The notes under the pieces: model-generated
Databases searched by the model: none
What the model saw: the letters and a program-made list of their open reading frames with translations, nothing else
Told to the model about the DNA's origin: nothing
Part shown: positions 30,361 through 64,000 of the stretch, one piece after another
Numbering within the stretch: the stretch's first letter is position 1
Layout of the letters: the number at the start of each line of letters is the position of its first letter
Program-made: the position numbers and the translations under genes
Assembly (NCBI GenBank): GCA_964016885.1
Contig: OZ024740.1
Span: 303,924,001 to 303,988,000 of the forward strand
Direction: 5' to 3'
DNA length: 64,000 bases
Source: Eledone cirrhosa
Taxonomy: Eukaryota

Positions 30361-30392
<32 letters not shown>

Positions 30393-30418: not shown

Positions 30419-30498
<80 letters not shown>

Positions 30499-30514
30499 TA
30501 AAATAACAGATTAA

Positions 30515-30761: not shown

Positions 30762-30764
<3 letters not shown>

Positions 30765-30797
<33 letters not shown>

Positions 30798-34674: not shown

Positions 34675-34710
<36 letters not shown>

Positions 34711-34720
34711 CATATAAATC

Positions 34721-34752
<32 letters not shown>

Positions 34753-34978
34753 TATATAAAAATCTACATACATACATATATACATACATACATATATACA
34801 TATTATACACACACATATATACATATATATATATATAAAACCTTACACACTTAAATATAAATGCATATATATATACAAATGTATAAATGCATAGCTATAT
34901 ACATACATTTACGTATGTATATAGCTATGCATTTATACATTTGTATATATATAAGCATTTATATTTAAGTGTGTAAGG

Positions 34979-35047
<69 letters not shown>

Positions 35048-35984
35048 TTGTGACAAGAAGCTTGTTTCCCAACCACATATTTCCGGGTTCAGTCCCACTG
35101 CCCAAGCTGACCAAAGCCCTGTGAGTGGATTTGATAGATCGAAACTAAAAGAAGCCGTCGTATCATCATCATCATCATCATCATCGTTTAACGCCCATCT
35201 TCCACACTTGCATGGGTTTGGACGGGAATTTTCCCACTTGAGGCAAGATTGGTTGACTTGCTCGTATAGGATTGGCTGGCGGGTTTTCTGTGGCTGGATG
35301 CCCTTCCTAACACCAACCACGTTTACAGTGTGGACTGGGAGGTTTTTACCGTGTTACCTACATGGCCACATTACAGCGTGGACTGTGTGTTTTTTTGTGT
35401 ATATATATATATGTATATATGTCTGTGTGTGTCTTTGCGTTTGTGTTTGCCCTCCCACCAATGCTTGTTGGTTTGTTGACGTCCCCATAACTTACCAAGG
35501 TGATGCTCTAGCATGGGCGTAGTCCAGAGACAGAAAAAAAGTAAAATATATATGTCTGTGTGTGTGTAGAAGACGGGTCTCAAACTCAAGGACACAAAAG
35601 GGCTATTACGTCCTGGAGGAGAGGCACAGTGGGCCAAACGTGGTGGTGGGTGAAAATTTTCACCAGTTATAATCATTTCTACTATAGGAACAAGGCATGA
35701 AATTTGGGGTTTAGGGTTCAGTCGATTGCATCGATCCTAGTACACAACTGGTGCTTAATTCATCGACCCCAAAAGGATGTAAGGCAAAGTTGAGATCGGC
35801 GGAATTTGAACTCAGAACGTAAAAACGGAAGAAGTACCGTTAAGCATTTCGCCAGATGTGCTAACGATTCCACCAGTTCGCCGTCTTATTTTCAACAGTT
35901 ATAATGCGATATGAAATATTGGTTCTACCACGGGCCACAGATAAGTAGTTCGCGGGCCTCATGTGTGAGCCCCCTGTTGGAGAT

Positions 35985-38900
35985 ATTTCTTTATTAGCCA
36001 CAGGGGCACAAAAGAAGGGGACAAATTCAAAGGGGGAAGTTTACATACAATAAAAACGTGTAAAATGTTATCACAAATGCAATTTAAAAAGTTAGTCGAT
36101 TTTCCCCAATAGGGGGAGAGAGTTTATATGGGTAACACATACCCCCGAAGAAATGTGAAACCCTAATCTCCAGGAGTACGAAGAGTTTGTACTCCCTTCC
36201 TCTCCTCCTCCTTTTCCTCAACCTACGGGCTGATATAGAGAGAAGGCCCATTCTCGCCACTTTCACCCACCTTTCATAAAACTTGCTGGGGTACAGCACC
36301 TCTCTCTCCACCCTGATTCTCCTTCCAAAGTGGTATTTGAAAAAAAGAATCAGTTGTTGGCCGGAGAGAAAGGTGTCTGACCTCAGCCCTTTCAACCTTG
36401 TCCACCATACAACCTCTTTCGCCATAGCTATCACACAAAGGAAAACCGCCTCTCCTTCGTTTTTGAAGGAGGGTGGCAGTTTGATCATGACAATGGACTC
36501 GGTGGTCAACCGGGTTGGTCCCACCCGCGACAATAGTCGTTCTACATAGCCCCACAGGTCAGTGACGCCCGGGCAGTGTATGAATGCGTGCGCGACGGTT
36601 TCTTCGTCTCGCACGCACCTCGGACAGATCTTTTTTGCAGGGTCCCTGCCCGGGCGCCCATGTCTGTATAGCTTGTCTCGAACTGGTAGAGCTCCTCGGT
36701 AGCACTGCCAGGCCAGGAACTTTTGGAAGTTGTCCATCGGTCCCGGGCGGAAGGTCCTACCGAACAGACTGGCCAGTTCATCTTCCTCTACGCCTAGAGT
36801 TTCACCGAGCGCGTCGTCGTACTTGCTGCGGATCAACCCTCTATAGAATGACGAAGTGGAGTCTCCACTGATCGCCGGGTCCGCCTGCCAGAGGGCTGTT
36901 AGCGCCTGAGCACATTCAATGTGCTAGTCGCCCATTTTCCTCGGTCTTTGCTTGACCCAGGACTGCAGCTCGGTCAGCGAGCCTTCCCAACGGGGCCCAC
37001 ACCGGTTGTCCGGTGAGGAATACGTAGAGATGCCGCAACCTGAGCGCGTGTTTGCGCATCGTCAACCACGGCATCCCCAGCCCTCCGTTAGAAGGGTGTT
37101 GGCAGCAGATGGATCTTCTCACCAAAGGAGCCCGCCTCTTCCAAAGGAATCGGAAGAGCGCGCGCTCCATTTTGGCGAGCGTTTTGGCTGGACAAGGCAC
37201 GACGGTCAAGCGGTAGTAGATGGCGGACGCTATAAAAGTGTTCGCCACCTCCAGGATAGTTTGCACTCGGCCCACTTCTGGGTGAGTGTAAACACCTTGG
37301 CCGTTACTTCGTTCCAGTTCTTCTCCACCTGGAGGTCCGGACCAAACCAGACCCCGAGCAGCTTTACCGGTCCTTCCGTCCAGCGTCCGACGACGCCATC
37401 GGAAGGCATCGGTTTGCCTCTCCACGATCCGAGTTGCAAACCGATGGACTTGTCCCGGTTCAGCTTCGCTCCTGTGAAACTTTCGTATTCCTTCAGTAAG
37501 GTGCCGACTTCCTCGATTTGCGAGGCGCTCGACACCATTACTGTCACGTCGTCGGCGTAGGCCGACGCCGCTTTCCGCAGTCCCGGTTCCAGAGGGATGC
37601 CCTGCAATAGCTCCAACTTCCGCAGTAGTGGCTCGAGAGTCAGTACGTACAGAAGGGAGGAGAGAGGGCATCCCTGTCGAATGGATCGCGTAATATGGAA
37701 CGGCTCCGAGAGGTAGCCGTTCACCTTGACCCTTGAGCAGATGTTGCTGTTGTGCATTGCAGCAATCCAGCCTCTGAACACGGGTCCGAAGCCTGCCGCC
37801 TCGAGCACCGCATCCAGGTAACGATGGTCAACCCTATCGAAAGCCTTAGATTGATCCAAGTTGATCAGGGCCCCACCGAAGCCGGGTTTACACCCTACCC
37901 TCTCTATGATGTATCGCATGAGGTGGAGGTTGTCGTGTATGGACCTGGTCGGGATTGCGCATGTCTGCGCTTCTCCCACCAGGTTCTCGACGACAAGCGC
38001 CAGCCTCTTTGCCAACACCTTGGCCAAAATCTGTAACTCTGTGTTTAGCAGAGTTATGGGCCGGAAGTTGCCTATGTCATCCCCCTTATTCTCGTCCTTC
38101 CTGATTAGTGTGACCAGGCCCCCGGTTACAGAACTGGGAATTCTCCCGTTCTGTTGCCAGTTGCAGTAGACCGCTTCCAGGAGACCGGAGAATAAGTCCG
38201 GCATTGCTACGTAAAATTCGTAGGGTAGACCGTCGAGACCTGGAGATTTGCGTTTGCCGCATTGGCTCAGCGCGTCCCCTATCTCAGCGGCTGAAATCGG
38301 CTTTTCGCAGAACTTTGCCTCGCCGTCCGAGAGTCGCAGTAGGCCGTCGAGGTATGGACCGAAATCCATAGCCTCTCCCGGCGCGCCGCCCCTCCCGGCG
38401 CGCCGCCCCTCCCGAACAGCTGAGCAAATGGCCGCTGAAAAGTCGCACACATCTGCTTCGGCTCACGTATCACGCGTCCGTTTTGGTCCTTCAAAGACCG
38501 AATAGTGGACTTGTTGCCACTTTTTCCCTCCGTCACTCGGGCCCAGCTAACAGCTTTGGCTCCCTCGTTTCCCATAGCACGTGGTTTGCTTCTGACAACG
38601 CAGCCCTCGTGCTTTGTGTCGAAGAACTGGTCCAAGGCCGTTCTCGTTGCTAGCACGCTGGCTACGTTGCCACTTCTAATTGCCTCTTCTACTTTATCTA
38701 CCAGTTCCTTCTCGGTTCTATTTCTATCTAACGCTAATTCTTTACTAAAAACTATCGAGTCTAATCTAACTGCCCTCTTGAGAGAGTACCACCATCTGTT
38801 GTTGACAATGGCCCCTGTCAAGTGCTGTTTAACTAAAGTGCTAATCCGTCTACTGTAGGCTTTGCTTGTCGGTAACGACAAGTTCAGCTTCCAGTAGCCG

Positions 38901-41770
38901 GGTCCTTGTCTATGGGTTCTATCAAGGTTGGCCATGCAGGTCACTAGTTTGTGATCTGAATAGGCAACCATGAACATTTGTGGACAGCTTAACATGTCCC
39001 TATCCTTATTTCTAACTAGAACCCTATCTAGGTACGATCTAGATGTTCCGCTACGATTACTCCACGTCCACAGTGGCGCAGTCGGAAAATCTAGTCGATA
39101 TCTATCGGCCAGGTCAAATCGGTCGATTAACTGTTTGAGGCTGTTACACCCCCCTTTTTCGGGACATGCTCCCACATAGTCCCAACGTGCATCTAGGATT
39201 CCATTCCAGTCCCCCACTAAAAGCAAGGAGCGGGACGTTCCCAGAAAAGTCTCTAGACGTTTGAAGAAGTCTGGCCGCGGTGTCCCGGATGGGGCATATG
39301 CGGCCACCAGCCTGAAGGCCCCACCTTCACTACCGTCAACGTCTAGGATCACCAGTCGACCCTCCGGGTCCAGATGTACCGTCTGTGTTACGAGGCCCAG
39401 GTGTTTCCGCAGCAAAACGGCAACTCCGCCCCCACCCCCCGGTTGACAGAGAGATGCGTAGATCTCAAAGTCATCGAAGATGGGGGCTAGCTGTCGCTCG
39501 CTGTGGATCCTGGACTCGCAAATGGCTACCACATCCATACTGTGCGACCTGAGGTCGTTTAAGAGTTTGCCCTGTTTCCAGGGCATCCCCAGGCCGCGTA
39601 CGTTCACACATCCAACTCTTATATTGGCCATGTTGGTGCTGAAAAGTTAAAAGAGGAAAAGAGATCACTCACCCTTCGTCTCCTGGGGACCAGGCCGCAC
39701 GATTTCCATGGGGGTGTTGGAGGGGTTGTTTGGATGGGTGGTGGTTTCCGGCGGGGTGGGGACGCAGATGTTTGGTGGGATGGGGTCTGGTGGGATGGGA
39801 GTGTCTGGGGTGGGGAGACATTTGAGAAGAACGCGGTTGAGTGGTTTCACGCAGGAATTCCCCACATCCTTCTCAAATGTTTCTTTTAGGGACCTATAAG
39901 TTTGTATAGGGACCCTAATCAGTTTTAGGTTCAGTTTTTTGCTATTTTTAATAGAGTGGGCGAAAGTTTTCCCTTCGGTTTTCACCGAAGGGTCGTTCGT
40001 GATGGTCTCCATTAGTGTTTTGTTTTCAGTGTTTATGTAAGTGTAAGTGTAATTTTCTTGTGTTGTGTTTGGTTTTTGTCTGTAGTTCTTGTGTGTGCTT
40101 TCGTTTTGTTGTAGGTATTTTGTTTTCAGGAGGTGGGGGTTTTGTTTGTGATGTTTTTGTTGTTTGTGTTGGTGGTTGTATGTTTGTGCTAGTGTTTGCT
40201 GTTTTTTTGCTTTTGTGATGTCTTTTCTTTCTTTTCGAGCGATGGGGGTTCTCCCTCGTCTTCACTGGGTGATGGCGAGCTAGCCTCATCTGTTGTATCG
40301 TCTGTGTGATTGGGGAGGAGTATGTCTTGGGGAGCTGTTGTGTCTGTATGTGATTTTGTAGTGGTTTTAGGTGGAGTGAGGTTGGGTGGGACTGTGTTTG
40401 TTGTGGTTATTTTTGTGTGTTGGTGTTGTTGTTGTGGTGGTGGTGTTGGTGGTTGTGTTGTTTTGATGGGTGTCGGCAGAAGAGCCTTTTTTTATTCATT
40501 AATTTAGGACAGGAAGCCCTCAGGTGACCCCTGCTAAAGCAATGGTAACATGAAGGCCGCCTACTCTCAACCGAAAAGTTTATGTAGGTGAGTCCGTCCA
40601 GGAGTACACGTTGTGGGATCATAGCTATTCGCTCTGGGCTCATTTGCACCAGAACTTCAATGCTAGTCCCATTGAATACATCTCTGGGGGACTTTCCTAC
40701 TGACAGTATTCTGTCTTCATCAAAATTGATGAAGCCGCACAGTATCCACCATATGTTCACCTTTGGTGTGACACTCGTGATTCTGATCTTTTGTGTCCTT
40801 TTTCCCATGTATGTAGGGAAAAAGTTGTACAGGTTGGATACAATTGGCGACACAGAGTAATTTTGGGCCGTCAATTGATCCTTCATGAGTACCGAAATAC
40901 TCCCAAAAAGTTTGCTTCTTTGAATGAATGAAATATCATTCATTGAATTTTTGAAAACCAGTTCAATTTCTTTCTGTGACAATTGGACTGGTTTTCGGGT
41001 AGAATTGGAAACTGTCCTAAAAACTATCGTTTTGAGAGCAGTTTCCTTGCGAATTTCTACCAGAGAATTGATGCTGAAAGCACCATTTTTTTCGAAAGTG
41101 ACATATCTCCTAGCGTCCTTTAAAAGCTGTTCAGCATTTGTTATGTCGAGATATATTAATTCCTCCTTTTTTTTAACTTTCTCTGCAAAGGAGATTTTTG
41201 GTTTCTTTGTGGAATCCGTGTTGTTGGTGTTGTCATTATTGTTGTTATTGTTGTTGTTATTCTTGTTGTCACCGATGTTGGTATTATTCGTATTTTCCTT
41301 GGTGTTGTTGTCTTTATTTTTTTCTTTGTTGTTGTTATCATTGTTGCTTTTATCATCATTATTGGTGTTGCTGTTATTTTTGTTGTCATTGAATTGTTTG
41401 ATGTCATTTGTGTTGTTTGGATATGAATTCGTTTTTACATTTTCATTTCGTCTTTCCATCTCTATAGTATCTAGTGAAGAAGACATTGTTGACTGCGAGC
41501 TTTGTAGTCTTACCGCCTCTCCACCACCATTATCGTTGGACGCAGCGTTCATAACGTAATCAAAATTTTACAATATTTTTTCCAAGATTCCATGGAGAAA
41601 AAATTTTTAAAATGGATATTCCGCCCCTGTAGGGGCGAAAATGAGTTGACCCACCACCTGAAAGTCCAGATGGGGGGTCAAGTTACACAATGATATAAAA
41701 TTTAACTAAAAACTCACGTTTTTTTCTTACATAAATTAACGGAAACTTCTCCGCGAAGTTACACACGTCT
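35985..41770 (-). mobile_element. Near full-length Tx1/L1-clade LINE (ORF1 and ORF2, frameshifted)
   Basis: ORF1 40407-41552 with Asn-rich N-terminus and CCHC knuckle CYHCFSRGHLRASC; ORF2 APE 38279-39631 (NVRGL, GDWN, YLDR, SDHK), RT 37230-38450 (KSPGLDG, DQSKAFDRV, RQGCPLS, YADD), C-terminal CPRC..ETVAHAFIHC; AATAAA at 3' end. Confidence 0.93.
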
Positions 41771-41789
41771 GATAAATAGATAGATAGAT

Positions 41790-43735
41790 TTCTTTATTTA
41801 CCATAAAGGCATAAAAAGAAGGGACAAATACAAAGGGGGAGTTTACATATAATTGAGTAAAAAGGGTGTAACATGAAAATAATCGAAAATAACCTCAAAA
41901 GGGAGGGGACGTGATGGGGATTGCACACACCCCCGAAAAAGTGTGCAATCCTTTGCCCGGGGAGCACATGGAGAAGGTGCTCCCCTCTCCTTTACTTCTT
42001 TACCTACAGGATGGTATACAGAGAAGGCCCATTTACACGAGCCATTCTCGCCACTATCACCCACCTTTCATAAAACTGCCTGTGGCCAAGCACCTCTCTC
42101 TCCATTCTTATCCTTCTTCCGAAGTGATATCGGAAGAAGTAGACCAGACTATGGCCAGAGAGGAAGTTGCCTGACCTCAGACCTTTCAATCGTGTCCACC
42201 AAACAACCTCTTTCAACATGGCTATTACGCACAGAAAAACCGCCTTTGCTTCCTTTGTGAAGAGGGGAGGCGGTTTGATTGTCATCACGGACTCGGCGGT
42301 CAATTTAATCGGCGCCACCCGCGACAGCAGTTGTTCGGCGTAGCCCCACAGATCAGCCACGCCCGGACATTGCACCAATGCGTGCGCTACGGTTTCTTCG
42401 TGACGCACGCATCTAGGGCAAATCTTTTTTGAGGGATCCCTGCCCGGGCGCCCGTGTCTGTAGAGCCTCTCTCGAACGGGTAGAGCCCCTCGGTAGCACT
42501 GCCAGGCCAGTGACTTCTGGAAGTTGTCCATTGGTCCTGGGCCGAAAGTCCTACCGAACAGGCTGGCCAGTTCGTCTTCCTCCATGTCCAGCGACTCTCC
42601 AAGGGTGTCATCGCCCCTGCTAGCCACCAGCCCTCTATAGAATGATGAGGTGGATTCTCCACCGATGGCCCGGCCCGCTTGCCAGAGAGCCCTGAGCGCC
42701 TGAGCACACTCAGTGTGCCAGTCTCCCAGTTTTCCGGATCTTTGCTTGACCCAGGACTGTAGCTCGGTGAGTGAGACGAGTCTCGGAAAGGCTCGTTTCA
42801 CGAACGGAGCCCACACCGGTTGACCAGTGAGGAATACCTGTAGGTGCCGTAGCCTTAATGCGTGCCTACGCATCATCAACCACGGCATCCCCAGCCCTCC
42901 TTTCGAAGGTTGTTGGCAGCAGATGGATCTTCTCACCATAGGAGGACGCTTCTTCCAAAGAAATTGGAAGAGCATGCGTTCCATGGTGGTGAGTGTTTCC
43001 TTAGGGCAAGGCACGACAGTCAGGCGGTAGTAAGTGACGGACGCTATGTAAATGTTCGCCACCTCCGCCCGGCCTTTTAGGGACAGCTTACACTTGGCAC
43101 ATTTCTGGGTTAGTGCAAACACCTTGTTCGTAACCTCGTTCCAGTTCTTTTCCACCTGGAGGTCCGGTCCAAACCAGACCCCAAGCAACTTTACCGGGCC
43201 CTCCGTCCAGTGTCCGACGACACCGTCAGGAGGCATCGGTTTGCCTCTCCACGTTCCGAGTTGCAGCCCGATGGATTTTTCCCGGTTCAGTTTCGCTCCT
43301 GACAACCTTTCGTACTCCTCCAGTAAGGTACCGATCGCCTCGATCTCCGAGTCGGTTGATACCATTACTGTTACGTCATCGGCGTAGGCCGACACCGCTT
43401 TGCTCAATCCTGGTTCCAGAGGGATACCCTGCAACAACTCCAACTTCCTCAGTAAAGGCTCGAGAGTCAATACGTACAGAAGGGAGGAGAGAGGGCACCC
43501 CTGTCGAATGGATCGTGTGATTTCGAACGGCTTCGAAAGGTAGCCGTTCACCTTGATCCTAGAACAGATGTGGTTGCTATGTAGGGCAGTGATCCAGCCT
43601 CTGAAAACAGGACCGAACCCAGCCGCCGCTAGCACCGCATCCAGGTAACCATGGTCGACCCTATCGAAGGCCTTAGACTGATCCAAGTTGATCAGGGCCC
43701 CACCGAAGCCGGGTTTGTTGCCAACCCTCTCTAAC
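41790..43735 (-). mobile_element. 5'-truncated Tx1-clade LINE of a related subfamily with intact reading frame
   Basis: ORF 42004-43782 with RT and C-terminal zinc motif; 18-bp TSD ATAAATAGATAGATAGAT at 41772-41789 and 43736-43753. Confidence 0.93.
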
Positions 43736-43819
43736 ATAAATAGATAGATAGATAGATAGACGTGTACCAAACACACACACATTTCTTACTCTCTCTGTCC
43801 CTCCCTCTTTCTCTCTTCA

Positions 43820-49524: not shown

Positions 49525-49637
49525 AACCGTGGCTCTCCGATACGTTTAACTTATCCTCTTAGAGTCCCACAAACTTCGCAATTTATTTGCTGTACCTCTT
49601 AAAAGAATACCAACTGTTGTGATACTGATAAATAATT

Positions 49638-51494
49638 ATGGCACGCAGAAAGATTAAACATGTTTATAAACCGTAAGTTGGTTGTAAATCGTATAATTTT
49701 AATACTTTATTTTACAACATGGTGGCCATGTCTGAAGTAGCACATGTCTTCATCATTTTCTCATTCACTCCCTTTTAGCTCACATTATCTTCACTTTTAC
49801 TTTTTTTATTTACTCAAAATCCTATTTCAATCTTCCTTAACGAAGAAAGATTTTCTTTATTATTGAATTTCATCATACTAATAACATTCGACAAAGTTAT
49901 GGTTATTTCGTAAGATTTTTAAAATAATCATAATTGTTTTTCATGGTAATTATAATTGCTATATTATAAAGAAATATTCTCTACTATAATTTTCTCAATG
50001 CTTTACCACTATAAAGTGTTTCTTTCATGTGTCGAATTAATGTTATTAAAAAATAGCATTGTAGTTTTAAGAAATCTGTTCTTAAGAAATTGTGTCACGT
50101 GTCAATATTGCGAGACAAAATTTAGAAAATTTCAAACTATTAATAGTAATTTCTTTTATTTCACTGGAAGTTTCATATATTTAACTCACAATCTGTGTCG
50201 ATGCTTTTAAACAAACAATCAGATCCATACTACTTGTCTGCGACAAGCATTTCGCGAATCCTTACTATAATAAATAGTTTATCCATAGAAAATGATAAAA
50301 CTAGACGAAGATAAAATGCAGATTACTAAGTCAGGCCGTAATGAATTTTGTACTTAACTGACTTGTGTGTTTTATCTATGTCCACCCTGAAGAAATTTAA
50401 CTCCCTGTATATATATTTATTTTTTATGAGAATAAGTTTGTTTTTTACATATCAATTTTTTTATTTCAATTTATTCGCTCCTTGATTTGATCTTTCGCTA
50501 ATCTACAATGAAAATGCTATCCGATTTTTTTTTTTTTTGCGACAGATCGTAAGATTGTCAACTGCGCAAACCTTTTGGAGCTATTTCTAATAAGTTCAAT
50601 TTAATCTGATGAAAGAGGGAATTAGTACTAACTGTTGTTGATCTAGGCATCTTTATGTATCTTTGGGGTTAAGGTGACGGATCATAAGGTAGTGCATTTG
50701 ATTTTTGGGCGGTGCGTTGTCTTGAAAAGGCAATGTATTTTACGTTACTTTTTACGATCGAACTGGGGTACCCTTTCATTAAAACAAATACCTAAGAAAA
50801 CTGCAACTTCTTTGGAGGCCAGCTGAACTTACATAGGTGTGAGCTGAACATTTTTATTTTTTTTCGTCTCTTAAATGGTAAATATTTTATCCTTTAAAAC
50901 TGAATATCTAAATTCTCAGAAATATTTCGGCAAAGTATTGCAATCTTATCCCAAGTTAGTTTGATTAGTTGAATACAGCCAGTACTTTCTCGTTAGCTTT
51001 TAAATTTCATCTTAATGTTTTACTAACTTTTGAAGCATAAGAATTTTTGGGAGATTTATACAACACCCCTCTCGATTTCGGTGGGAAATATTTTTCCTGT
51101 TTATTTTCGTGTGCTATCAACTAATCTGACTCGGAACGTGCCCCAAGTGACTTTTTTCCCGGGAAGCGGGGATGGGGGGAGCCCCCGAACTTGCTCTGCC
51201 CGGAGTTTTCTTTACCATTTTTTTTTTCGTATGTTATCAACAAATCTGACCTCCAAATCCACTCGGAAGTGAAGAAAATTAAGAGGGAAGACCCTCGGAG
51301 TTTCCCAGACATACACCCCTCTCGGGTTGGATAAGAAATATGTATTTCTTTCATAGTTTTTTTCGCGTATTATCGACGAATCTGACCTCCAAACACGCAC
51401 TCTAACCCATAGAAATAGCCTTAACGCTAACACCCACCCTAACTCTCTTCTGACATTTGATATGAGGTACAGTTAACTAAAAAACGAATATAAT

Positions 51495-51527
<33 letters not shown>

Positions 51528-54500
51528 CCGGTAAAAAAATTCAGGGATAGGAGAAAATTCTAGCCCCCCCCCCCTCTCCTTCCTTTGTGTCATGTTAGGA
51601 GGTCAGATTAATCGGTGGCACTCGAAAAAACCGAGCGAAAATAATTTCCCATTGTATGCTTTTTGTCTCCTCTTTAGAAAAATGACTGGAAATTAATTTT
51701 AAGTAATTTTTATTTTTATTTTTTTATATTCAATCTTTGTTAAATTAGATTTAACCCTCTAGTTACCCAATCCTGCCAAAACTAGCTCTGGTTCTAAAAC
51801 AAAACCACTCATTTTAAATTAAAATCTAACAATTTTATATAAGAACCATACATTAAGTTACTAGTGAAATAATAATTTTAGTAAATCCTTCAAAATTTTT
51901 CATTAATTAATTGAAATAGTGTATTTCATTAGAAATGCAGTCATGAAAGGGTTAGAGTTCTATCTACCTACTAATAAGGAAAATTCATAAAGAAATATAA
52001 CTCTTGTTAGAAAAGTTATACCATGTTAAGTGGTAAAAGTAATACATGGTTAATGTGAACTTGTTTTCACAGATGTTTATTTAAATCTTCCTTTATAATT
52101 TATATATTAAACAACGTTCCCCTAATTAATTTGATATATTTATTTAACACTAAGTTTTTTGTTTTTCTTTTCAAAATCTTATATAATATAAAAACTTATT
52201 GTATTTCTAGGCCAGCTGGTGGGGCCACAGTCACACCTAAAGAAAACAAATCAAAAGTACCATTAGATTGTGTAAGTATTCTAAATGAACTGACAAAGTG
52301 TTTTGTGTAAGAGTATATAAACTCGGGGTGTCTCACTCTCTTCCTCTGTAATGTTTATCACATTTTCATTAACTACCTATTTGCTATTAATTTTTATCCA
52401 TACTTGACACACTGTAAATGTGGTTGGCGTTAGGAAGGGCATCCAGCCATAGAAACCAAGCCCAAATCAGTTCTGTATGAGCAGGACATGGTCATCTGAT
52501 CTGGCTTGTCTCACAATGGGTGAGCTCGTTTAGCATCGAAAAATGGACATTAAATGTTGAGGATGGTGATGAATATGATACCATCTTCCTCTCCTAAACC
52601 TCTGCTTACAGGTGTTATACACAACCTAAACATTAATTTCAGACTTGCACTGATTCTTGTGAACAGAATCATTGAAAGCTTCTTTCAACGATCACATTGT
52701 GTTACTTAGCAACACAAAAACTTCAGTTGCTACAAATACCAGGCCTCAATTTGATTACACCTCATCATGGCACCTTGACAATCCACTGTAGTCCTCCAAA
52801 GGTACAACTTTTCTTTTCGGCTTGCTGAATCCCAATTCATTGTATAATCATTTATAATACTTCTGAAGATGTACAGTATTTAATAATGCTTTGTTATACT
52901 CAATATTTTCCCTCTTTATCTAAATTTAAATAACAAGCATTAATTGAATAAGATTTATTGAAACAATAAACAATTATAAAGCTATTAAATTGTTTAAAGA
53001 AATTTACTCTTGTCATCTCAGTTATATATGTTGTGTTATTATGTGTCCCTAAATTCTTCTATTCTTTAAATAACATCTCTTCTAAATTTGTTTCTGTCAT
53101 GTTAGTGACATAACAAAAACCTCCCAGTCCATCCTGTAAGGTGGTCATGCTGGTGACGCAACAAAAACCACCTAACATGGTTGGTGTTTTAGAAGGGCAT
53201 CTAGCCGTAGAACCAAGCCAAAATACTGATCTATATGAGCAGTACTTGGTTTCTTGACCTGACTTGTCTCATAATGCAACAACCTGTCTAACCATCCTTC
53301 ATAATTGTCCTGTAATTCTAGATTTTCTCTTTGCCCATGTTTTCCCTGCAGACATTGATTGACAGATGTTGAAACTGAATGTTAACCACATCAGTTTGCA
53401 AAGATCAGAAATCCTCCTTCAAGCTTAAAAATAGACATAGCAACATTTCAGATTTTCATCATTGTATAACTTTTTTTTGTAAAATATAGTTGACATATGT
53501 TTATGTGTAACAAAATGTCTTCTATGACTGATTATTGGCTTAATTAGTTAATGTTCATGTCTAATAACTCTGACTGCCATTGTGTAATCTTTACCAAACG
53601 TTACTATGATGGTCTATCCCGTTGAGATGCTACAGCCTTTTGACACCATATAAAATCTATATGAACGTCTTTATTTTAAATGTAATTTTTTTAAATGTTA
53701 TCTGCTTATTACAGAAAACAGAAGCATATGTTGACAGTTTGTATAATGCAGCATTTCAGAAGCACACTTCACGGCCTAATAATAATTTGGAAGGTTATTT
53801 TATAGTACTTCGCTGGTATAAATTTAGCACAACATGGATAACATATTATGTTGGCGAAGGAGAAATTCGCTCAGAACTTAATCGCTTATTTGGCTCTCCG
53901 AAGACACCTAAAGCAATCAATCAATACTTGACCTCAGTTTCGAGAAAGGATCGTAGCAGATTGTTAGCTCTCAAGTGGTTTCCGTATCCTGACGACTTCA
54001 AGGTAATTAGTGTAATGTCATTATTGGGAAAGTTTGTTTGCTTTAATGTCCTCTTCAGAAACATTGTTCATGAAAAATATTTTAAATCATAAACATAAAA
54101 AAAAATTTTTGCACAAATATTTGTATGTGAACAGCTGATATGTGTAGAAAATATAGCTGTAATGATGTGTAGAAAACGTAGTTATATTGGTATGTGTAGA
54201 AACTATAGCTGTGTTGATATCTATTGAAAACAGTTGTGTGATGTATTTGGCCTCATGGATGTTGCAGGATTGACAGCTAGTGATTTGAATAATGTATTTC
54301 TATATTTGTAATGGCTATTCTGTAGATTGTAGATTAATTAATCATGCAGATGTTGTGGATGGAAAAACTTTTGACACAATAAGAAGTTAATTCAGTGTGA
54401 AAGTATTTTCAGCAGAAGTCATTTAAGTCTGTACAAAACTGCTCTACTGATATAGTGTTGAGCTTGTAACTTCACGCAAAAAGATATCATTAAGTGAGTG

Positions 54501-55147
54501 GATTGTGGGCACAAAAACGTGTTGACTAGTTCCTACTGGAATTCTTTGAACAGTGACTTACCTTAAATTTTCAAATTAAAACTTATTTTCTTTTAACTTA
54601 ATAGAACCCACTGAAGTGGTTAGAGTGTTGAGGTTGTGAGTTCAATTCCTAGACCAGGCTATGTATTTTGTTCTTGAGCAAGATTTTATTTCACGTTTTA
54701 GTTCAATCAGCTGAGCTGTAGAAATTTGTTGCAACATCACTGATATCAGCCTTTGCTTTTCCCTTGGTCAACATCAGTGGTGTGAAGAGAGGAGACTGGT
54801 ATGCATGGACGACTGCTGGTCTACTGCAAACAACCTTGCTCGAACTTGTGCCTTGGAGGGGAACTTTCTAGATGCAAATCCAATGGTCATTCGTGACTGA
54901 TGGGGTTATAAAAAAAAAAAAAACATTTAATGTCTTTTTGAATTGAAATCAGGAATGGTAAAGATTTTAATAATTAGGATTATGTTTATGATTTTATCAA
55001 TATACTAAATTGAATGATGGAACTACATTTTTCATGATTAATAGATAAAGTAATATTTTGTAATTTCAGGCTTCAATGAAAGATATTAAAGCTGTCATTG
55101 CTGCAAAATACAATGAAAATTATGAACCACCATTTAATAATGTTTAA
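49638..55147 (+). CDS. Uncharacterised 153-aa protein with GIY-YIG-like motifs; 4 coding exons; probable snoRNA host gene
   Basis: Exons 49638-49672 (MARRKIKHVYK), 52211-52271, 53715-54002, 55070-55147 (TAA) all have strong GT-AG sites and compatible phases (2,0,0). Motifs EGYFIV...YYVGEGEIRSELNRL...LKW...YEPPFN. Another donor (G|GTAAGT) follows at 55173/55174. Confidence 0.72.
53715..54002 (+). CDS. Largest exon (96 codons) of the GIY-YIG-like gene
   Basis: Open frame inside ORF 53622-54092, bounded by TTACAG and AAG|GTAATT; non-repetitive, coding-like composition. Confidence 0.8.
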
Positions 55148-56122
55148 CAAAAGACACTACATAGGCTTGCTTGGTAAGTTAGGTGATATGTAACACTTTG
55201 TTTCTAATGTATTTCAAGTAAATTCCTAAATGAATCTATACTAGCTTTGTAAAACAACTGTAATTTTATATATCTATTATGAAAATTCAGTGTCAAATAC
55301 ACTCCAACAGGTAAAATGAGTGAAATATTTTAAATATTGTCAACAAGGAAATACTGAACATTATAGTGGCTATAATAAGGTTCCTCTAAGAGGTCTTTGG
55401 AGTAACGTTACTGGATAGTGGATAGCTTGGAGATCACAGCTCCGATACTATAAACATCGTCAGAATGTCTAAGGAAAGAATCGCTGGACAGATTTTACAG
55501 GCAAAAACCAACCCGAAGGAGACACAGGGGTAGACCCCGAGTAAGATGGTTGGATAACATCCATGAGCTTGGCTGGTCTTGCCTGGGGATCCAGCTAGAT
55601 CATTGGAGCTGCTTGAGGACCTGCCCCCACGGCACTCCCAGGAATAAGTGGGCAAAGAAGAAGCCTAAAGGCTTATTTTATGGCCAAACTAATTTTATCT
55701 AGTTTATCTTATCTTTTTTTGTTTATATTTTTTGCAAGTTGCTTTTGAGGAAGAGAATAATTGGCTCTGGTTTCTGCAGAGACTCAAACCTTCTTTCTGG
55801 AAATCCTGGCCATAGCTAGTTGATTTGTTTAAACTAATGGAAATTAAAACATTGAGTTAAAATCTGTCATGTACTGAGCTTAAGATGTTTCTACTTTTTG
55901 CATATGAAAATCCTGAAATTCAAAGTCACTATCTAAATAAATCTAAAGTTTACATATTTTTTAAGAAGAAATAAAATAAATCCAACTAGTTCAATAATAA
56001 ACAGGATTAGAATATATTAATAGTTAAGTAAATTAACCATCTTTTAGTAAGAAAATAGAAATCTTAATTTTCTATAATTACTTTGTAATACATTGTCTGT
56101 GTATCTTGTTTGAATATAATCT

Positions 56123-56233
56123 AACTTGCAGTGATGCTGTAATTTGCGTCTGATGGTGCAATGTGCAGACAGTTGCCTGCTGTCATTAAATGCCATTAGT
56201 TCTCACTGAAGAAAAGTTATAACTGAGCAAGTT
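56123..56233 (+). ncRNA. SNORD16: Box C/D snoRNA U16-like, copy 1
   Basis: Terminal stem AACTTGC/GCAAGTT, C box GTGATG, guide GTAATTTGCG plus D' CTGA, GACAGTTGCCTGCTGTC hairpin, D box CTGA; matches the recalled vertebrate U16 (TGCAATGATGTCGTAATTTGCGTC...GACAGTTGCCTGCTGTCA...ACTGAGCA). Confidence 0.92.
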
Positions 56234-56871
56234 TATTTACATGATATATTTAATCATCTTCATTGCCCATTTATTCCTGTGATGGTTGTGTGGACAGTCT
56301 TCAGACACTTATCAGAGGTTCCTATCAGAAGCATCCATCTCCAAATGATCTTGCTGGGTCTTCTGGTTAAACACTCCTTAAACATGTCTTTGTAGTACGG
56401 GAGATGTGATCTCGCTGCGGAAAAGTGGCGACTCCCTGACCTCCAAGCTGTGTACCCTATTGAATAACATTACTCCGAAGATCCTTCGGAGGTGCCTCCT
56501 TTTGTTCACTTGTGTTTGTGACTATTTTTTTAGTCATTACTTAAGATTCATTACCATAGGTAAGTGAGTTTACTGTTTACATCTACCTCTCTTCTGATGA
56601 CCAAGAGTTAAAGCTGATGCATTACTGCACCAGCTCCAACAGTTCCTATATTTAATTCATCCAGCCCCTGGGATACTTCATTCAAAGTCAGCACTAGATT
56701 ATAAGTTGTTGATACATTTTATTTAAGCTATCAGTGTTTCCAGGTGTAATTCTGACAGAAATGTTCATTTATAAAGAAGAATGTAATCTACAAGAATCAC
56801 AGCTGAGAAAGTTATGCTACTGCTATTGTTACAGTAATACATTGTCTCTGTGTCTTGTTTGAATATAATCT

Positions 56872-56982
56872 AACTTGCAGTGATGCTGTAATTTGCGTCT
56901 GATGGTGCAGTGTGCAGACAGTTACCTGCTGTCATTAAATGCCATTGGTTCTCACTGAAGAAAATTTGTAACTGAGCAAGTT
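56872..56982 (+). ncRNA. SNORD16: U16-like snoRNA copy 2
   Basis: Same 111-nt unit, boxes and guide intact. Confidence 0.92.
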
Positions 56983-57885
56983 TATTAACATGATATATTT
57001 AGCTAAATCTCTTAATGTAGTCTTCCAGTTAAGTCTTTCATTATCAATTTGTCGAAGAACCCACACATTTTGTTCCAATTTAACCACCTCTCTGTATTAA
57101 CTGATTTAATTTTGAAATTCATTGTTTTAATGTCTGTTCGACAACATGTAGTCACTATTGATATATATATATATATATATATACATAAATTCAGTTGTAT
57201 GATGCCTGTGTGAGATGCGTGATGCTGTGTGGCAGCAACTGCAGAGGATATGCGAAGGCTGGGGAGAAATAAAGCTAGCATGCTCCGATGGATGTGAAAT
57301 GTCGCTGTGCGTGAACGACTAGGCATGGACGAGTTGAGAGTGAAACTGTATAAGAGGGATAAACTGTAGTGTGCGGGAGAGAAGGCTGCGTTGGTATGGC
57401 CATGTGATGCACATGGAAGATGACCGCTGGGTGAAGAAGTGCCAAGAAGTCCTGGTGGAAGGAAGACCACGAAAAACATAGTCTGAGGTGGTGAGAGCTG
57501 ACCTCTGGTCATTGAAGCTCACAGGAGATGACGAAGGACCATGATGAATGGAGAGATGCTGTACTGAAAAGGACCTGCCCCACCCTTACAAGCAGGGAAA
57601 AGCGGACATAAAATGATGATGATATATATACTGGTGTTTCATGCATTTATATCCAATAACTGATATTTTTGTCAGAATTTATTTCAGAAGTCTTAAGATT
57701 TATGACTGAATATTCCTAGCTAAATTGTTGACTATTCCACAGTGAATGTTTTGTAAACTTAGTTAAAATATATTACAATCCACATATCCCATATGTATAT
57801 AGTTATCATGATAGCTTACTCACTGAAATAATACTCTACTGTTATTTTGTATAATTACATTGTGTGTCTTGTTTGAATATAATCT

Positions 57886-57996
57886 AACTTGCAGTGATGC
57901 TGTAATTTGCGTCTGATGGTGCAATGTGCAGACAGTTGCCTGCTGTCATTAAATGCCATTAGTTCTCACTGAAGAAAAGTTATTACTGAGCAAGTT
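57886..57996 (+). ncRNA. SNORD16: U16-like snoRNA copy 3
   Basis: Same 111-nt unit, boxes and guide intact. Confidence 0.92.
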
Positions 57997-58751
57997 TATT
58001 TACATGATATTTTTATCATTTTTATTGCCCATTTATTCCTGTGATGGTTGTGGGGCCAGTCCTCAGACACCCTTTTCTAGAGCTTCCTATCAGAAGCAAT
58101 CATTCTCAAATGATCTGGCTGGGCCTCCAAGTGAGAGCAACCAAGATTATGGATGTTATTCAACCATCTTGCTTGTGTTGTGATCCACATCTGAGTCTTC
58201 GGTCAGTTGGTTTTGCTTGTAAAATCTGTGCAGTAATTGTCTTTTTAAACTTTCTAACATGTTAGTAGTACTGCAGCTATGATTTCTTGATGTAGAGAAG
58301 CATTGACTCTATCTGGATTTCTCAGCTATGCAATCTATTAACATTACTTGAAAGACTCTTCAGGGAGCCCCATTTAGCTCGCTCATATAGGTAAGCAAGT
58401 TTGGCTTTTACACCTTCCTCCCTTCTGATGATGGAGTGTTGAAGTTGGTGCATTACAGCACCAGCTCCAGCAATTCTTGAATTTAATTCCGCCATTTGCC
58501 TTCCATCAGTCATGAAAATGACTCTTAGATACTTGAACTTCTCCACCTTTGTGAGTGTAACTCCATTCTCATTCAAAATCAGCTGTAAGTCCTTAGTCAA
58601 TGTTGATATATTGTCTCAATTTAAGCTATCATTATTTCCAGGTGTAATTTTGACAAATATTGATTTAAAGAATGGTGTAATCTATAGAATCCCAATATAC
58701 TGCTATTGTTATAGTAATACATTGTCTCTGTGTCATGTTTGAAGATAATCT

Positions 58752-58862
58752 AACTTGCAGTGATGCTGTAATTTGCGTCTGATGGTGCAGTGTGCAGACA
58801 GTTGCCTGCTGTCATTAAATGCCATTGGTTCTAACTGAAGAAAAGTTCTAACTGAGCAAGTT
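58752..58862 (+). ncRNA. SNORD16: U16-like snoRNA copy 4
   Basis: Same 111-nt unit, boxes and guide intact. Confidence 0.92.
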
Positions 58863-59420
58863 TATTTACATGATATATCTAACTTAGATTTTAAACATAA
58901 ACCTCTTAAATGTTATAGTCTTTCATTATCAAACCGGTGAAGATTTGTGCCAATTTAACGATCGCTCTGTATTATCTAAATTAACCATTTCAAATGAAAT
59001 AATTAATAATTTTAGCAAATCCCTTGAAATGCTTCATTTATTGAAATAGTGTATTTCGTTAGAAATGTGGTCATGAAAGGGTTCAGTGTAACTTCTTGTC
59101 ACTTATCCTGTTGGGAACACTCATGATTGGTTTTCTTCTACTTATCAAATGGCTAATGATATTTTTACTTACTAGCAATATTTTAGGGAGAAAAATATTC
59201 AAAATGTGTTTCCATCCTTCTCTTTGTTCTTATATCTTCCTCTTCAATATCCAACTATTTTCTAGCAACTTATGGTATTCATATGGCTTTTTGGCCCTTG
59301 TCTTACTATACTGTAATGGGTGTACTTTTTTTTTACCATCACACTGAAAGCATGTCTTTAGTGTAGTCATGATAACTGATGAATTGGTAATACCCTTCTA
59401 TTGTATTTTAACATATAGTT

Positions 59421-59531
59421 AACTTGCAGTGATGCTGTAATTTGCGTCTGATGGTGCAGTGTGCAGACAGTTGCCTGCTGTCAATATATGCCACTGGCTC
59501 TCACTGAAGAAAATTTATAACTGAGCAAGTT
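59421..59531 (+). ncRNA. SNORD16: U16-like snoRNA copy 5
   Basis: Same unit, variant class (TCAATATATGCCACTGGCTC). Confidence 0.92.
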
Positions 59532-60204
59532 TATTTAACCTTCAAATTTAGTAATAGATCTTCAGTTAATATTGATGTAATATTTTATTTAAGCTATGAA
59601 TATTTCCAGGTGAAATACTGACATGCATTTTAAATTATAAAGAAAGGTATGATATATAGGAATAAGAAAGATGGCTGCTAATGAAAAAGCTGAGAAAATC
59701 ATGCTGCTATTGTTTCTGAGATTTGTCATAACTATTATAATAGGACTTTATTGTGTCAACATCTCTTCACTGTCTTCTACTCGCTATTGATATATATATA
59801 TATTAGAAAGTGTCGAGGCCTGATGGCTGAGCTCTTGCCATTTTGATAGCTAGTTCCACTCTATCCCAAGTATCGGGTACTCTGTTGAATAATGAATGGT
59901 CTTATTAGTTTAATCCTGATATATATATATACCCTCACACAATTCATTAATCTGGTGCTTCATGTAGCTATATCCAATAAGTGATATTTTGCTATAATTT
60001 ACTTCAGAAGTCTTATGACTGAATATTCCTAGATAAATGGTTTTGACTTTTGGACAGTGAATGTTTGGTAAACTTAGTTAAAATATATTACAATCCACAT
60101 ATCCCATATGTATATAGTTATCATGATAGCTTACTCACTGAAATGATATTCTACTGTTATTTTGTATAATTACATTGTCTGTATGTCATGTTTGAATATA
60201 ATCT

Positions 60205-60315
60205 AACTTGCAGTGATGCTGTAATTTGCGTCTGATGGTGCAATGTGCAGACAGTTGCCTGCTGTCATTAAATGCCATTAGTTCTCACTGAAGAAAAGTT
60301 ATTACTGAGCAAGTT
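60205..60315 (+). ncRNA. SNORD16: U16-like snoRNA copy 6
   Basis: Duplicate of copy 3. Confidence 0.92.
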
Positions 60316-61071
60316 TATTTACATGATATTTTTATCATTTTTATTGCCCATTTATTCCTGTGATGGTTGTGGGGCCAGTCCTCAGACACCCTTTTCTAGA
60401 GCTTCCTATCAGAAGCAATCATTCTCAAATGATCTGGCTGGGCCTCCAAGTGAGAGCAACCAAGATTATGGATGTTATTCAACCATCTTGCTTGTGTTGT
60501 GATCCACATCTGAGTCTTCGGTCAGTTGGTTTTGCTTGTAAAATCTGTGCAGTAATTGTCTTTTTAAACTTTCTAACATGTTAGTAGTACTGCAGCTATG
60601 ATTTCTTGATGTAGAGAAGCATTGACTCTATCTGGATTTCTCAGCTATGCAATCTATTAACATTACTTGAAAGACTCTTCAGGGAGCCCCCATTTAGCTC
60701 GCTCATATAGGATAGCAAGTTTGGCTTTTACACCTTCCTCCCTTCTGATGATGGAGTGTTGAAGTTGGTGCATTACAGCACCAGCTCCAGCAATTCTTGA
60801 ATTTAATTCCGCCATTTGCCTTCCATCAGTTATGAAAATGACTCTTAGATACTTGAACTTCTCCACCTTTGTGAGTGTAACTCCATTCTCATTCAAAATC
60901 AGCTGTAAGTCCTTAGTCAATGTTGATATATTGTCTCAATTTAAGCTATCATTATTTCCAGGTGTAATTTTGACAAATATTGATTTAAAGAATGGTGTAA
61001 TCTATAGAATCCCAATATACTGCTATTGTTATAGTAATACATTGTCTCTGTGTCATGTTTGAAGATAATCT

Positions 61072-61182
61072 AACTTGCAGTGATGCTGTAATTTGCGTCT
61101 GATGGTGCAGTGTGCAGACAGTTGCCTACTGTCATTAAATGCCATTGGGTCTAACTGAAGAAAAGTTCTAACTGAGCAAGTT
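61072..61182 (+). ncRNA. SNORD16: U16-like snoRNA copy 7
   Basis: Duplicate of copy 4 (GCCTACTG variant). Confidence 0.9.
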
Positions 61183-61740
61183 TATTTACATGATATATCT
61201 AACTTAGATTTTAAACATAAACCTCTTAAATGTTATAGTCTTTCATTATCAAACCGGTGAAGATTTGTGCCAATTTAACGATCGCTCTGTATTATCTAAA
61301 TTAACCATTTCAAATGAAATAATTAATAATTTTAGCAAATCCCTTGAAATGCTTCATTTATTGAAATAGTGTATTTCGTTAGAAATGTGGTCATGAAAGG
61401 GTTCAGTGTAACTTCTTGTCACTTATCCTGTTGGGAACACTCATGATTGGTTTTCTTCTACTTATCAAATGGCTAATGATATTTTTACTTACTAGCAATA
61501 TTTTAGGGAGAAAAATATTCAAAATGTGTTTCCATCCTTCTCTTTGTTCTTATATCTTCCTCTTCAATATCCAACTATTTTCTAGCAACTTATGGTATTC
61601 ACATGGCTTTTTGGCCCTTGTCTTACTATACTGTAATGGGTGTACTTTTTTTTTACCATCACACTGAAAGCATGTCTTTAGTGTAGTCATGATAACTGAT
61701 GAATTGGTAATACCCTTCTATTGTATTTTAACATATAGTT

Positions 61741-61851
61741 AACTTGCAGTGATGCTGTAATTTGCGTCTGATGGTGCAGTGTTCAGACAGTTGCCTGCTG
61801 TCAATATATGCCACTGGCTCTCACTGAAGAAAATTTATAACTGAGCAAGTT
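61741..61851 (+). ncRNA. SNORD16: U16-like snoRNA copy 8
   Basis: Duplicate of copy 5. Confidence 0.92.
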
Positions 61852-62525
61852 TATTTAACCTTCAAATTTAGTAATAGATCTTCAGTTAATATTGATGTAA
61901 TATTTTATTTAAGCTATGAATATTTCCAGGTGAAATACTGACATGCATTTTAAATTATAAAGAAAGGTATGATATATAGGAATAAGAAAGATGGCTGCTA
62001 ATGAAAAAAGCTGAGAAAATCGTGCTGCTATTGTTTCTGAGATTTGTCATAACTATTATAATAGGACTTTATTGTGTCAACATCTCTTCACTGTCTTCTA
62101 CTCGCTATTGATATATATATATATTAGAAAGTGTCGAGGCCTGATGGCTGAGCTCTTGCCATTTTGATAGCTAGTTCCACTCTATCCCAAGTATCGGGTA
62201 CTCTGTTGAATAATGAATGGTCTTATTAGTTTAATCCTGATATATATATATACCCTCACACAATTTATTAATCTGGTGCTTCATGTAACTATATCCAATA
62301 AGTGATATTTTGCTATAATTTACTTCAGAAGTCTTATGACTGAATATTCCTAGATAAATGGTTTTGACTTTTGGACAGTGAATGTTTGGTAAACTTAGTT
62401 AAAATATATTACAATCCACATATCCCATATGTATATAGTTATCATGATAGCTTACTCACTGAAATGATATTCTACTGTTATTTTGTATAATTACATTGTC
62501 TGTGTGTCGTGTTTGAATATAATCT

Positions 62526-62636
62526 AACTTGCAGTGATGCTGTAATTTGCGTCTGATGGTGCAATGTGCAGACAGTTGCCTGCTGTCATTAAATGCCATT
62601 AGTTCTCACTGAAGAAAAGTTATTACTGAGCAAGTT
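62526..62636 (+). ncRNA. SNORD16: U16-like snoRNA copy 9
   Basis: Same class as copies 1, 3 and 6. Confidence 0.92.
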
Positions 62637-63120
62637 TATTTACATGATATTTTAATCAACTTTATTGCCCATTTATTCCTGTGATGGTTGTGGGGCCAGC
62701 CCTCAGACACCCTTTTCTAGAGCTTCCTATCAGAAGCATCCTTCTCCAAATGATCTGGCTGGATTTCCTGGTTAAACACACCTTAAACATCTTTGTAGTA
62801 CGGGAGATGTGATCTCTTAATGTGGAAATGTGGCGACATCTACCTCTCTTCTGATGACCAAGACTTGAAGATGATGCATTACTGCAGCAGTTCCTGCATT
62901 TATTTCAGCCAGGTCTCGAGATAATTCTATCTCATTCAAAGTCAGCACTAGATCATCAGTTGTTGATACATTTTATTTAAGCTATCAGTGTTACCAGGTG
63001 TAATTCTGACAAATGTTCATTTATAAAGAATGTAATCTACAAGAATCACAGCTGAGAAAGTTATGCTACTGCTATTGTTACAGTAATACATTGTCTGTGT
63101 GTCTTGTTTGAAGATAATCT

Positions 63121-63231
63121 AACTTGCAATGATGCTGTAATTTGCGTCTGATGGTGCAGTATGCAGACAGTTGCCTGCTGTCATTAAATGCCATTGGTTC
63201 TCACTGAAGAAAATTTGTAACTGAGCAAATT
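63121..63231 (+). ncRNA. SNORD16: U16-like snoRNA copy 10
   Basis: C box ATGATG, guide and D'/D boxes intact; same class as copy 2. Confidence 0.9.
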
Positions 63232-64000
63232 TATTAACATGATATATTTAGCTAAACCTCTTAATGTAGTTTTCTGATTAAGTCTTTCATTCTCGATTTT
63301 TTTAAAATAAAATAAAACCACAGCCTGCTTTTATAATAACCTTGTATTTCAGATTCCAAAAGCCCCCTAATTTCTTAGTTATTCTTAATTGAAACCCTGG
63401 CAATTTAACTTAAATACTTTAGAAAAACCTAAATCTTTTTTTTTTTTTTCATTGCAGAAAGCTGGCCAATTTTCTGAATATAAGTCCATATTATACCATT
63501 TTTAACATCAAAGAGGTTTAAATTCAGAAAAACCTATTTTTTGCTGAGAATTACTAAATTTTCACAACTTCAAATTTGGTAAATAAATGATGAATCTAGA
63601 TGAATTTTGATTTTTTTTTTCTTCAATAAATGATTCAATTGTTCTTTTTCTTTAAAGATCTTGTAATTTTGAATTATTTCATAACTGACATTTCAGTTTT
63701 ACCATACCATGATGGGAGTGGGTGTGGTCCAATTGCTTCTAAGAATTATTGTTGAAATGTATGCACATAAATAGAAAATAATTGGAAGTAGTTTTTAAAA
63801 ATGTTCATAAAGTAAATTTTTTGTAAGTTAAATATACCATCATTAGTTGTTTTATGACTGCCTTTCCATGCTGGCATGGGTTGGACAAGGCCTTTTGAGG
63901 CAGTCTTTCCTTACAAAAAGGATAAAACAGTTTCTGATGGATCTCTACTGATTATAACACTGACTATTTTGTATACGTGTAATGTCTGAATGAGTATCCT

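Follow-up and report, generated by a model that had tools for sequence, protein, structure and literature searches.

A tandem array of ten U16 snoRNA copies, very likely within a single 3′-untranslated-region intron of a protein-coding gene of Eledone cirrhosa

A ten-copy U16 array

We analysed a 64,000-nt stretch of the Eledone cirrhosa genome (assembly GCA_964016885.1, contig OZ024740.1, positions 303,924,001 to 303,988,000 of the forward strand), hereafter called the window, in which a first-pass annotation had proposed a ten-copy array of a U16/SNORD16-like small nucleolar RNA (snoRNA) of the box C/D type. By all features testable from its sequence, the array is true SNORD16. The Rfam SNORD16 covariance model (RF00138) matched all ten copies over its full length (model positions 1-100), at 103 nt each and with scores of 52.3-61.1 bits for a cut-off of 45 bits, which bears out the proposal. 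With a 4-nt stem extension on each side, the matches correspond to 111-nt units, which together span 56123-63231. The copies are listed below with their sequence classes, which are defined further on.

56127..56229, + strand: U16 copy 1, class A, Rfam 52.3 bits
56876..56978, + strand: U16 copy 2, class B1, 54.6 bits, one change in the extra-pairing hairpin
57890..57992, + strand: U16 copy 3, class A, 54.7 bits
58756..58858, + strand: U16 copy 4, class B2, 56.8 bits
59425..59527, + strand: U16 copy 5, class C, 55.3 bits
60209..60311, + strand: U16 copy 6, class A, 54.7 bits
61076..61178, + strand: U16 copy 7, class B2, 56.2 bits, one change in the extra-pairing hairpin
61745..61847, + strand: U16 copy 8, class C, 54.8 bits
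62530..62632, + strand: U16 copy 9, class A, 54.7 bits
63125..63227, + strand: U16 copy 10, class B1, 61.1 bits, 231 nt before the inferred acceptor

The 22-nt motif made of box C, guide and box D′, described as invariant in the first-pass annotation, indeed has ten exact matches (56132-63151, with starts from 56132 to 63130) and none in 100 shuffles. Variable columns number 15 of 103, and boxes C, D′ and D do not vary save for the purine of box C. The conserved hairpin and the terminal stem, also described earlier, hold for most copies: the hairpin is identical in eight of the ten, with a single G-to-A change in each of copies 2 and 7, and the stem has seven perfect pairs in nine, copy 10 having one mismatch. 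As had been noted, the spacers contain remnants of transposable elements, since pieces of them resemble dispersed repeats elsewhere in the window (68-83%). Independent promoters for each copy were considered and rejected, as no upstream motif is common to all classes beyond the stem.

A genome-wide SNORD16 scan, in which 52 of 264,424 first-look candidates were scored, yielded at least 11 model matches. The motif with one mismatch allowed was found at 14 places in the genome, two of which are chance matches. Our literature search, which covered few subscription papers, found no report of a cephalopod U16 array.

Predicted target in 18S rRNA

The complement of the guide, together with the neighbouring site for extra pairing, occurs 23 times in this genome, and a control pattern 0 times; the two target loci that we scanned are 18S rRNA. 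Guide and 18S rRNA pair over 10-11 bp. The pairing is the same in each of the ten copies and sets the fifth base before box D′ against the first target A. The extra pairing amounts to -22.0 kcal/mol in eight of the ten copies and is weakened in copies 2 and 7. The earlier proposal that both segments pair with 18S rRNA thus holds on the rRNA of this very genome. From its matching sequence context, we take the target A to be the counterpart of human A484, and the copies are predicted to guide 2′-O-methylation of this adenosine. Human U16 guides Am484 of 18S rRNA (PMC7693311), and extra base-pairing next to the target is described for U16/snR87 (PMC3116282).

The array thus resembles SNORD16/U16 (RF00138; yeast snR87) in its full-length fit to the model, in the same guide and extra pairing to 18S rRNA and in its intronic location. 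It differs in having ten copies and a non-ribosomal host instead of RPL4.

Sequence classes, duplications and selection

A tree of the copies with their shared flanks gave four groups, A (copies 1, 3, 6 and 9), B1 (2 and 10), B2 (4 and 7) and C (5 and 8). The three classes first proposed, with 2, 4, 7 and 10 as one, were not recovered: copies 2/10 are separated from 4/7 by 4-7 differences, a distance equal to that from copies 1/3/6/9, and the grouping of 4 with 7 has support of 97/93. Class B1 has no settled place at the base of the tree. The four classes have private bases, the class-specific positions being 35, 60, 63, 70, 72, 74, 78, 90, 93 and 95. The latest event is the following.

57631..62762, + strand: recent tandem duplication with a 2.32-kb period, which matches copies 3-4-5-6 to 6-7-8-9

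Its two units, 57631-60441 and 59952-62762, are 98.1% identical over 2,820 nt, with a period of 2,320-2,321 nt. We considered an assembly artefact and rejected it on the grounds of an approximately doubled read depth in two runs. In run X1 the contig within the repeat has a depth of 18, against 2.6-7.7 elsewhere; in run X2 the figure is 35.6, against 12.4-20.5 for the seven other pieces listed. Both runs come from one sample, perhaps the source of the assembly. The 2.32-kb repeat is thus very likely real, and the recent duplication described in the first-pass annotation is borne out. A contig from another run, X4, spans most of copy 7 with a one-base difference that lies outside the snoRNA. 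Copies 1-2 and 9-10 with their spacers form an older pair, the spacers being 87% identical. Two small insertions at 63010 and 63025 in run X4 make the stretch before copy 10 match that before copy 2; they represent an allele or a conversion event.

In four older comparisons, which overlap in copies and are not independent, the snoRNAs differ at 4/206, 5/206, 5/206 and 6/103 positions versus 35/413, 57/344, 38/307 and 34/150 in the respective aligned spacers, that is, by 1.9-5.8% versus 8.5-22.7% (p from 0.0013 to 5e-8). By these older comparisons, the U16 copies diverge 4-7 times more slowly than the spacers. Variants common to at least two copies fall in 1 of the 55 columns that are conserved in 29 outgroup copies, versus 9 of the other 48 (p=0.005). 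Selection has acted on each of the classes, those that are interior today among them. The purifying selection proposed earlier is therefore visible in the older duplications, where spacers diverge faster, and has left no signal in the recent duplicate.

The host gene and its protein

The host, overlooked in the first-pass annotation, is a spliced protein-coding gene. Run X4, whose type is not on record, represents one sample; we take it as RNA only because of its spliced joints. It contains a 619-nt contig of depth 1712 with three GT..AG joints (49672-52211, 52271-53715 and 54002-55070), from which the following exons were delineated.

49536..49672, + strand: host exon 1, start inferred from the extent of the X4 contig, ATG at 49638
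52211..52271, + strand: host exon 2, coding, from X4 spliced joints
53715..54002, + strand: host exon 3, which codes for 96 aa that form the core of the predicted GIY-YIG-like fold
55070..55173, + strand: host exon 4, with the TAA stop codon at 55145-55147 and a GT donor at 55174

The open reading frame (ORF) comprises 153 codons and ends at 55145-55147. Uncharacterised proteins of Octopus bimaculoides and Argonauta hians share 71% and 67% identity, respectively, with the product of exon 3. Orthologues of the host gene are LOC106880171 in O. bimaculoides and LOC115211037 in O. sinensis. A profile search collected 19 relatives of the host protein, ten of which were looked up and two named, from Solemya velum (a bivalve) and Babylonia areolata (a gastropod). 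Searches of the host protein against Pfam and PDB sequences and a first Foldseek search gave no match. A structural model built from 23 rows reached a predicted local distance difference test (pLDDT) score of 86, the first model having had 66. In a comparison with 48,161 chains, the top seven matches were all GIY-YIG-type nucleases or domains (Z from 6.8 to 3.8; next 2.4), the best with Z 6.8 and a root-mean-square deviation of 3.8 over 110 residues, all Z values being below 8. Atlas points likewise to GIY-YIG, and the best Foldseek E value was 0.08. Based on this modelling, a GIY-YIG fold of the host protein is likely.

The catalytic set of GIY-YIG nucleases consists of Tyr, Arg, Glu and Asn. 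In the 23 aligned rows of the host family, only P, G, G, Y and W are invariant, and the Tyr of the first motif and the helix Arg vary. The host protein has its top structural matches in the GIY-YIG nuclease superfamily, from which it differs by the lack of Pfam or sequence matches and by catalytic residues that are only partly recognisable. A weak match to it elsewhere in the genome (G000:C15:17259144-17259356; 32% identity, three stops) is probably a decayed paralogue. No other snoRNAs were found in the first three introns of the host, where the scan gave three chance-level matches.

A probable single intron for all ten copies

Beyond exon 4, the following two features were deduced.

55174..63457, + strand: inferred single intron of the 3′ untranslated region (3′-UTR), 8,284 nt, with all ten copies, from depth arithmetic and a contig end
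63458..63486, + strand: inferred start of host exon 5, with AATAAA motifs at about 63582 and 63625

Depth and contig ends make it very likely that the abundant mRNA loses 55174-63457 whole, with all ten copies. The joint between exon 4 and 63458 was placed because depth sums, a contig end and the top-ranked acceptor agree. In the 619-nt X4 contig, 590 letters lie on exons 1-4 and 29 beyond them. Counted as letters at depth 1712, the content of the bins with 63458-63486 comes to 28.4 and 29.9 in two separate mappings, and the same depth sum returns 106.0 for a 106-nt piece of exon 4. An unspliced X4 contig ends exactly at 63486, where spliced and unspliced paths must merge. A splice model, for which 29 acceptors and 16 donors served as the training set, ranks the AG at 63456-63457 first of the 447 AG sites in the interval. 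X4 depth across the array is 0-17 in non-repeat bins. In the abundant splice form, several snoRNAs would thus lie between consecutive host exons, judging from depth and contig ends. The limit for nonsense-mediated decay is a junction 50-55 nt behind the stop codon; the predicted exon 4-exon 5 junction lies 26 nt behind it, below this limit, and the mRNA should therefore escape decay.

The intron also contains inverted repeat remnants (55430-55669 versus 56249-56297, 58025-58286, 60344-60605 and 62651-62699; 72-80% complementary), which could form pairings that bridge copies in the precursor RNA. The minus strand of the window has, at 29600-43800, several broken LINE-like ORFs with reverse transcriptase and endonuclease motifs, as judged by eye.

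U16 hosts in other genomes

The host of vertebrate U16 is RPL4. Over 40 kb spanning RPL4 of this genome, no SNORD16 match was detected at E<=1. The same 40 kb contain four SNORD18 matches (41.9, 41.4, 38.8 and 37.4 bits; cut-off 41), and the RPL4 introns (L022:1841-9073, G000:C4:327.46 Mb) also harbour three decayed U18 look-alikes. A single 4.3-kb RPL4 intron holds two of the matches (41.9 and 37.4 bits) and two decayed copies.

A pattern scan of metagenome contigs identified 28 distinct animal U16 loci, some of them overlapping or near-identical, on short contigs. Rfam scans of 18 of these loci identified SNORD16 in all 18. The hosts are RPS23 (17 loci), a gene for an RRM protein (8) and RPL4 (1), with two loci unassigned. 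The introns of the RRM-protein gene represent a second non-RPL4 host (L030, L031, L034, L038, L044, L049, L052 and L056). Two copies are present at 11 of the 28 loci, in separate introns in eight cases and in the same intron in three; the latter are pairs in one RPS23 intron (L032, L040 and L043). Within these 28 short contigs, a locus never has more than two copies. The distance from U16 to the next coding acceptor ranges from 121 to 1,925 nt at the other loci. Cryptic exons between the three same-intron pairs did not exceed shuffles (27-97%), and no relatives of the host protein were found beside U16 at the 28 loci.

A non-RPL4 host and duplication are thus ordinary for U16, because 27 of the 28 other loci were not assigned to RPL4 and 11 have two copies; ten copies in one intron is the unusual part. 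The first-pass annotation had inferred that the snoRNA moved to a new host. U16 is indeed absent from RPL4 here, but the novelty of such a host does not stand, only one of the 28 other loci being in RPL4. A move from RPL4 is only one possible history.

How the copies may leave the intron

We propose that an endonuclease separates the ten selected tandem U16 copies of the probable single 3′-UTR intron and that trimming turns them into individual guides, a reading to which we give about an even chance. The host is transcribed and spliced, as shown for exons 1-4. Joining of exon 4 to the exon at 63458 would then release the entire array as one intron. Core proteins would bind the copies unaided by a splice site close by, since 231 nt separate the acceptor from the copy next to it. 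The spacers may then be cut by an endonuclease of the EndoU type or another kind, either before splicing, in the precursor, or once the intron is out, after which exonucleases would trim the products to the boxes. Each transcription event would yield several guides, and extra copies may raise or buffer the yield.

Spacers 1-2, 2-3, 4-5 and 7-8 have no acceptor-donor pair that beats shuffles (63-80% of shuffles reach it); thus, splicing offers no plain way to part every copy from the next. If a ten-copy intron were trimmed from its two ends, a long snoRNA-ended RNA would be left (PMC11028025). Endonuclease cutting does not depend on splice sites in the spacers and has a precedent in XendoU and U16, as described in PMC11961692. 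Copies that share an intron are tolerated elsewhere, as illustrated by two U18 matches in one RPL4 intron here and two U16 in an RPS23 intron.

Two dispersed copies in the genome bear on the same question. One (L014:4940-5400, G000:C4:47702439; 48.9 bits, 98% identity to copy 2, between TA runs) comprises only positions 5-115 of class B1, without the upstream flank, and is fused to a full-length tRNA-type short interspersed element (SINE). The other, which is decayed (L015:4850-4990, G000:C1:259389325, minus strand), is nearest to class C, with 10-11 differences versus 12-14 to the others, and has a SINE tail close behind. According to PMC1687206, snoRNA retrocopies show a comparable pattern. 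As the two retrocopy-like copies derive from B1 and probably C, their sequences hint at discrete RNAs of further copies besides the first. In the window, a tRNA match at 17552-17609 is the head of a SINE (17541-17900) that is 95% like the SINE fused to the dispersed U16.

Several observations weigh against endonucleolytic release of selected copies. The presence of an EndoU gene in this genome is weak evidence and says nothing of its use, and in the account of PMC10557570 the human EndoU homologue is not shown to cut intronic snoRNAs. Extended stems formed by the flanks of the copies are no better than those of shuffles (6-64%). The dispersed copies could be DNA-level captures, or could descend from an array whose copies once stood in a different order. 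The exon 4-exon 5 joint is itself deduced from a single sample: one joint was dropped at a repeat, 63423-63458 is listed as repeat, and no high-depth contig covers the remainder of exon 5. The segment for extra pairing has changed in two copies (2 and 7). Since the last duplication, the snoRNAs have accumulated 3/412 differences versus 7/1808 in the spacers (p=0.41), with no extra conservation; by sequence, the newest duplicate copies look redundant, and gene conversion could mimic part of the conservation among copies. These last points would fit an array made mostly of passengers, in which exonucleases, coming from either end, halt at the first copy that has assembled, leaving long snoRNA-ended RNAs, or one U16 where a single copy assembles, and conversion homogenises the copies. 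Two snoRNAs in one mammalian intron give rise to sno-lncRNAs (PMC11028025), and copies 2, 7, 8 and 10 of our array carry private changes. Furthermore, about 42 nt upstream and 23 nt downstream of the snoRNA are near-identical in classes A and B, like conversion tracts. Nevertheless, the class-defining changes avoid conserved columns at the p value given above, class C has its own flanks around an intact snoRNA, four classes persist, and the retrocopy-like copies stem from B1 and probably C. We regard the passenger explanation as improbable.

Splicing could also release copies if the single intron were a property of the stable mRNA only, rare forms with cryptic mini-exons placing copies in introns of their own, from which ordinary debranching and trimming would free the snoRNAs before these forms succumb to nonsense-mediated decay. 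Six of the nine spacers have a homologous acceptor-like site followed 34-39 nt on by a donor-like site, the candidate joints leading into 56744, 58642, 59610, 60962, 61930 and 62998, and spacers 3-4 and 6-7 contain a site pair reached by just 2-3% of shuffles. Behind copies 5 and 8, the acceptor lies at the textbook distance from the snoRNA, 83 nt, and the donor, with rank 1-2 of 507, scores above the real one. The corresponding candidates are as follows.

59610..59646, + strand: candidate cryptic 37-nt mini-exon, acceptor ranked 15 of 447, donor 2 of 507, pair reached by 13% of shuffles
61930..61966, + strand: duplicate candidate mini-exon behind copy 8, from splice-site ranking

A spacer mini-exon would sit far behind the stop codon, and since contigs drop rare splice forms, the absence of such forms is weak evidence. 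A precedent is human C17orf76-AS1 (SNORD49A/B), whose main form skips more than one C/D snoRNA and whose minor, decay-prone forms could release them, according to PMC4233243. It differs in having two snoRNAs rather than ten, and here the cryptic exons are candidates only and the host has a conserved ORF. On the other side, run X4 has no mini-exon joint, and its contigs cross the candidates unspliced. Spacers 2-3, 4-5 and 7-8 lack the homologous site, and the four spacers named above have no pair exceeding shuffles. For class C, 7-13% of shuffles equal the site pair, and the splice model has a small basis, namely the 29 acceptors and 16 donors used in training. No homology above shuffles was found between the candidate mini-exons and exon 5 or the last acceptor. 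Release by hidden splicing seems to us possible but rather unlikely. It is very unlikely that the gene model is wrong, with exon 4 continuing elsewhere or the gene ending earlier, and the array belonging to another transcript or being transcribed on its own. The state of the exon 4-exon 5 joint and of the remainder of exon 5 leaves room for this, and high-depth repeats near 55430-55610 could hide the 29 letters. However, the contig end at 63486 coincides to the nucleotide with two independent depth sums, the acceptor is the best of 447, and the classes have no upstream motif in common beyond the stem.

A more specific form of endonucleolytic release can be imagined, in which the GIY-YIG-fold protein of the host cuts or binds its own U16 intron, and cephalopods process snoRNA arrays as polycistrons. 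We consider it a long shot. If true, it would form a self-contained loop tying an uncharacterised mollusc-wide protein to ribosome modification.

Relation to known snoRNA clusters and significance

Fly intronic snoRNA clusters are mostly of the H/ACA type. As in fly host genes, which can have more than one snoRNA in one intron (PMC6619189; PMC11028025), several snoRNAs share a host intron here, with the difference that the array consists of ten copies of one C/D family. The imprinted SNORD113-116 clusters and rat Bsr are, like our array, local tandem C/D repeats with subfamilies, unequal crossing-over and conversion (PMC11028025). Those, however, are eutherian orphan snoRNAs in non-coding hosts, whereas the array described here contains a canonical rRNA guide in a coding mollusc gene. 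In contrast with SNORD115/116-type arrays, its snoRNA is a canonical 18S guide and not an orphan, and its host is coding, with a 153-aa ORF that has octopod, bivalve and gastropod homologues. The array thus resembles an intronic snoRNA cluster and is no member of the imprinted orphan arrays.

In themselves, the U16 snoRNA, its 18S target, the switching of hosts and duplication are nothing out of the ordinary. As in vertebrates, animal introns that harbour C/D snoRNAs mostly carry a single one, since the snoRNA is freed by trimming of the spliced intron from either end. Another exit route is needed where ten selected copies of an rRNA guide of the essential type share one intron. The snoRNA hosts now also include a mollusc protein family that is uncharacterised and likely to have a GIY-YIG fold.

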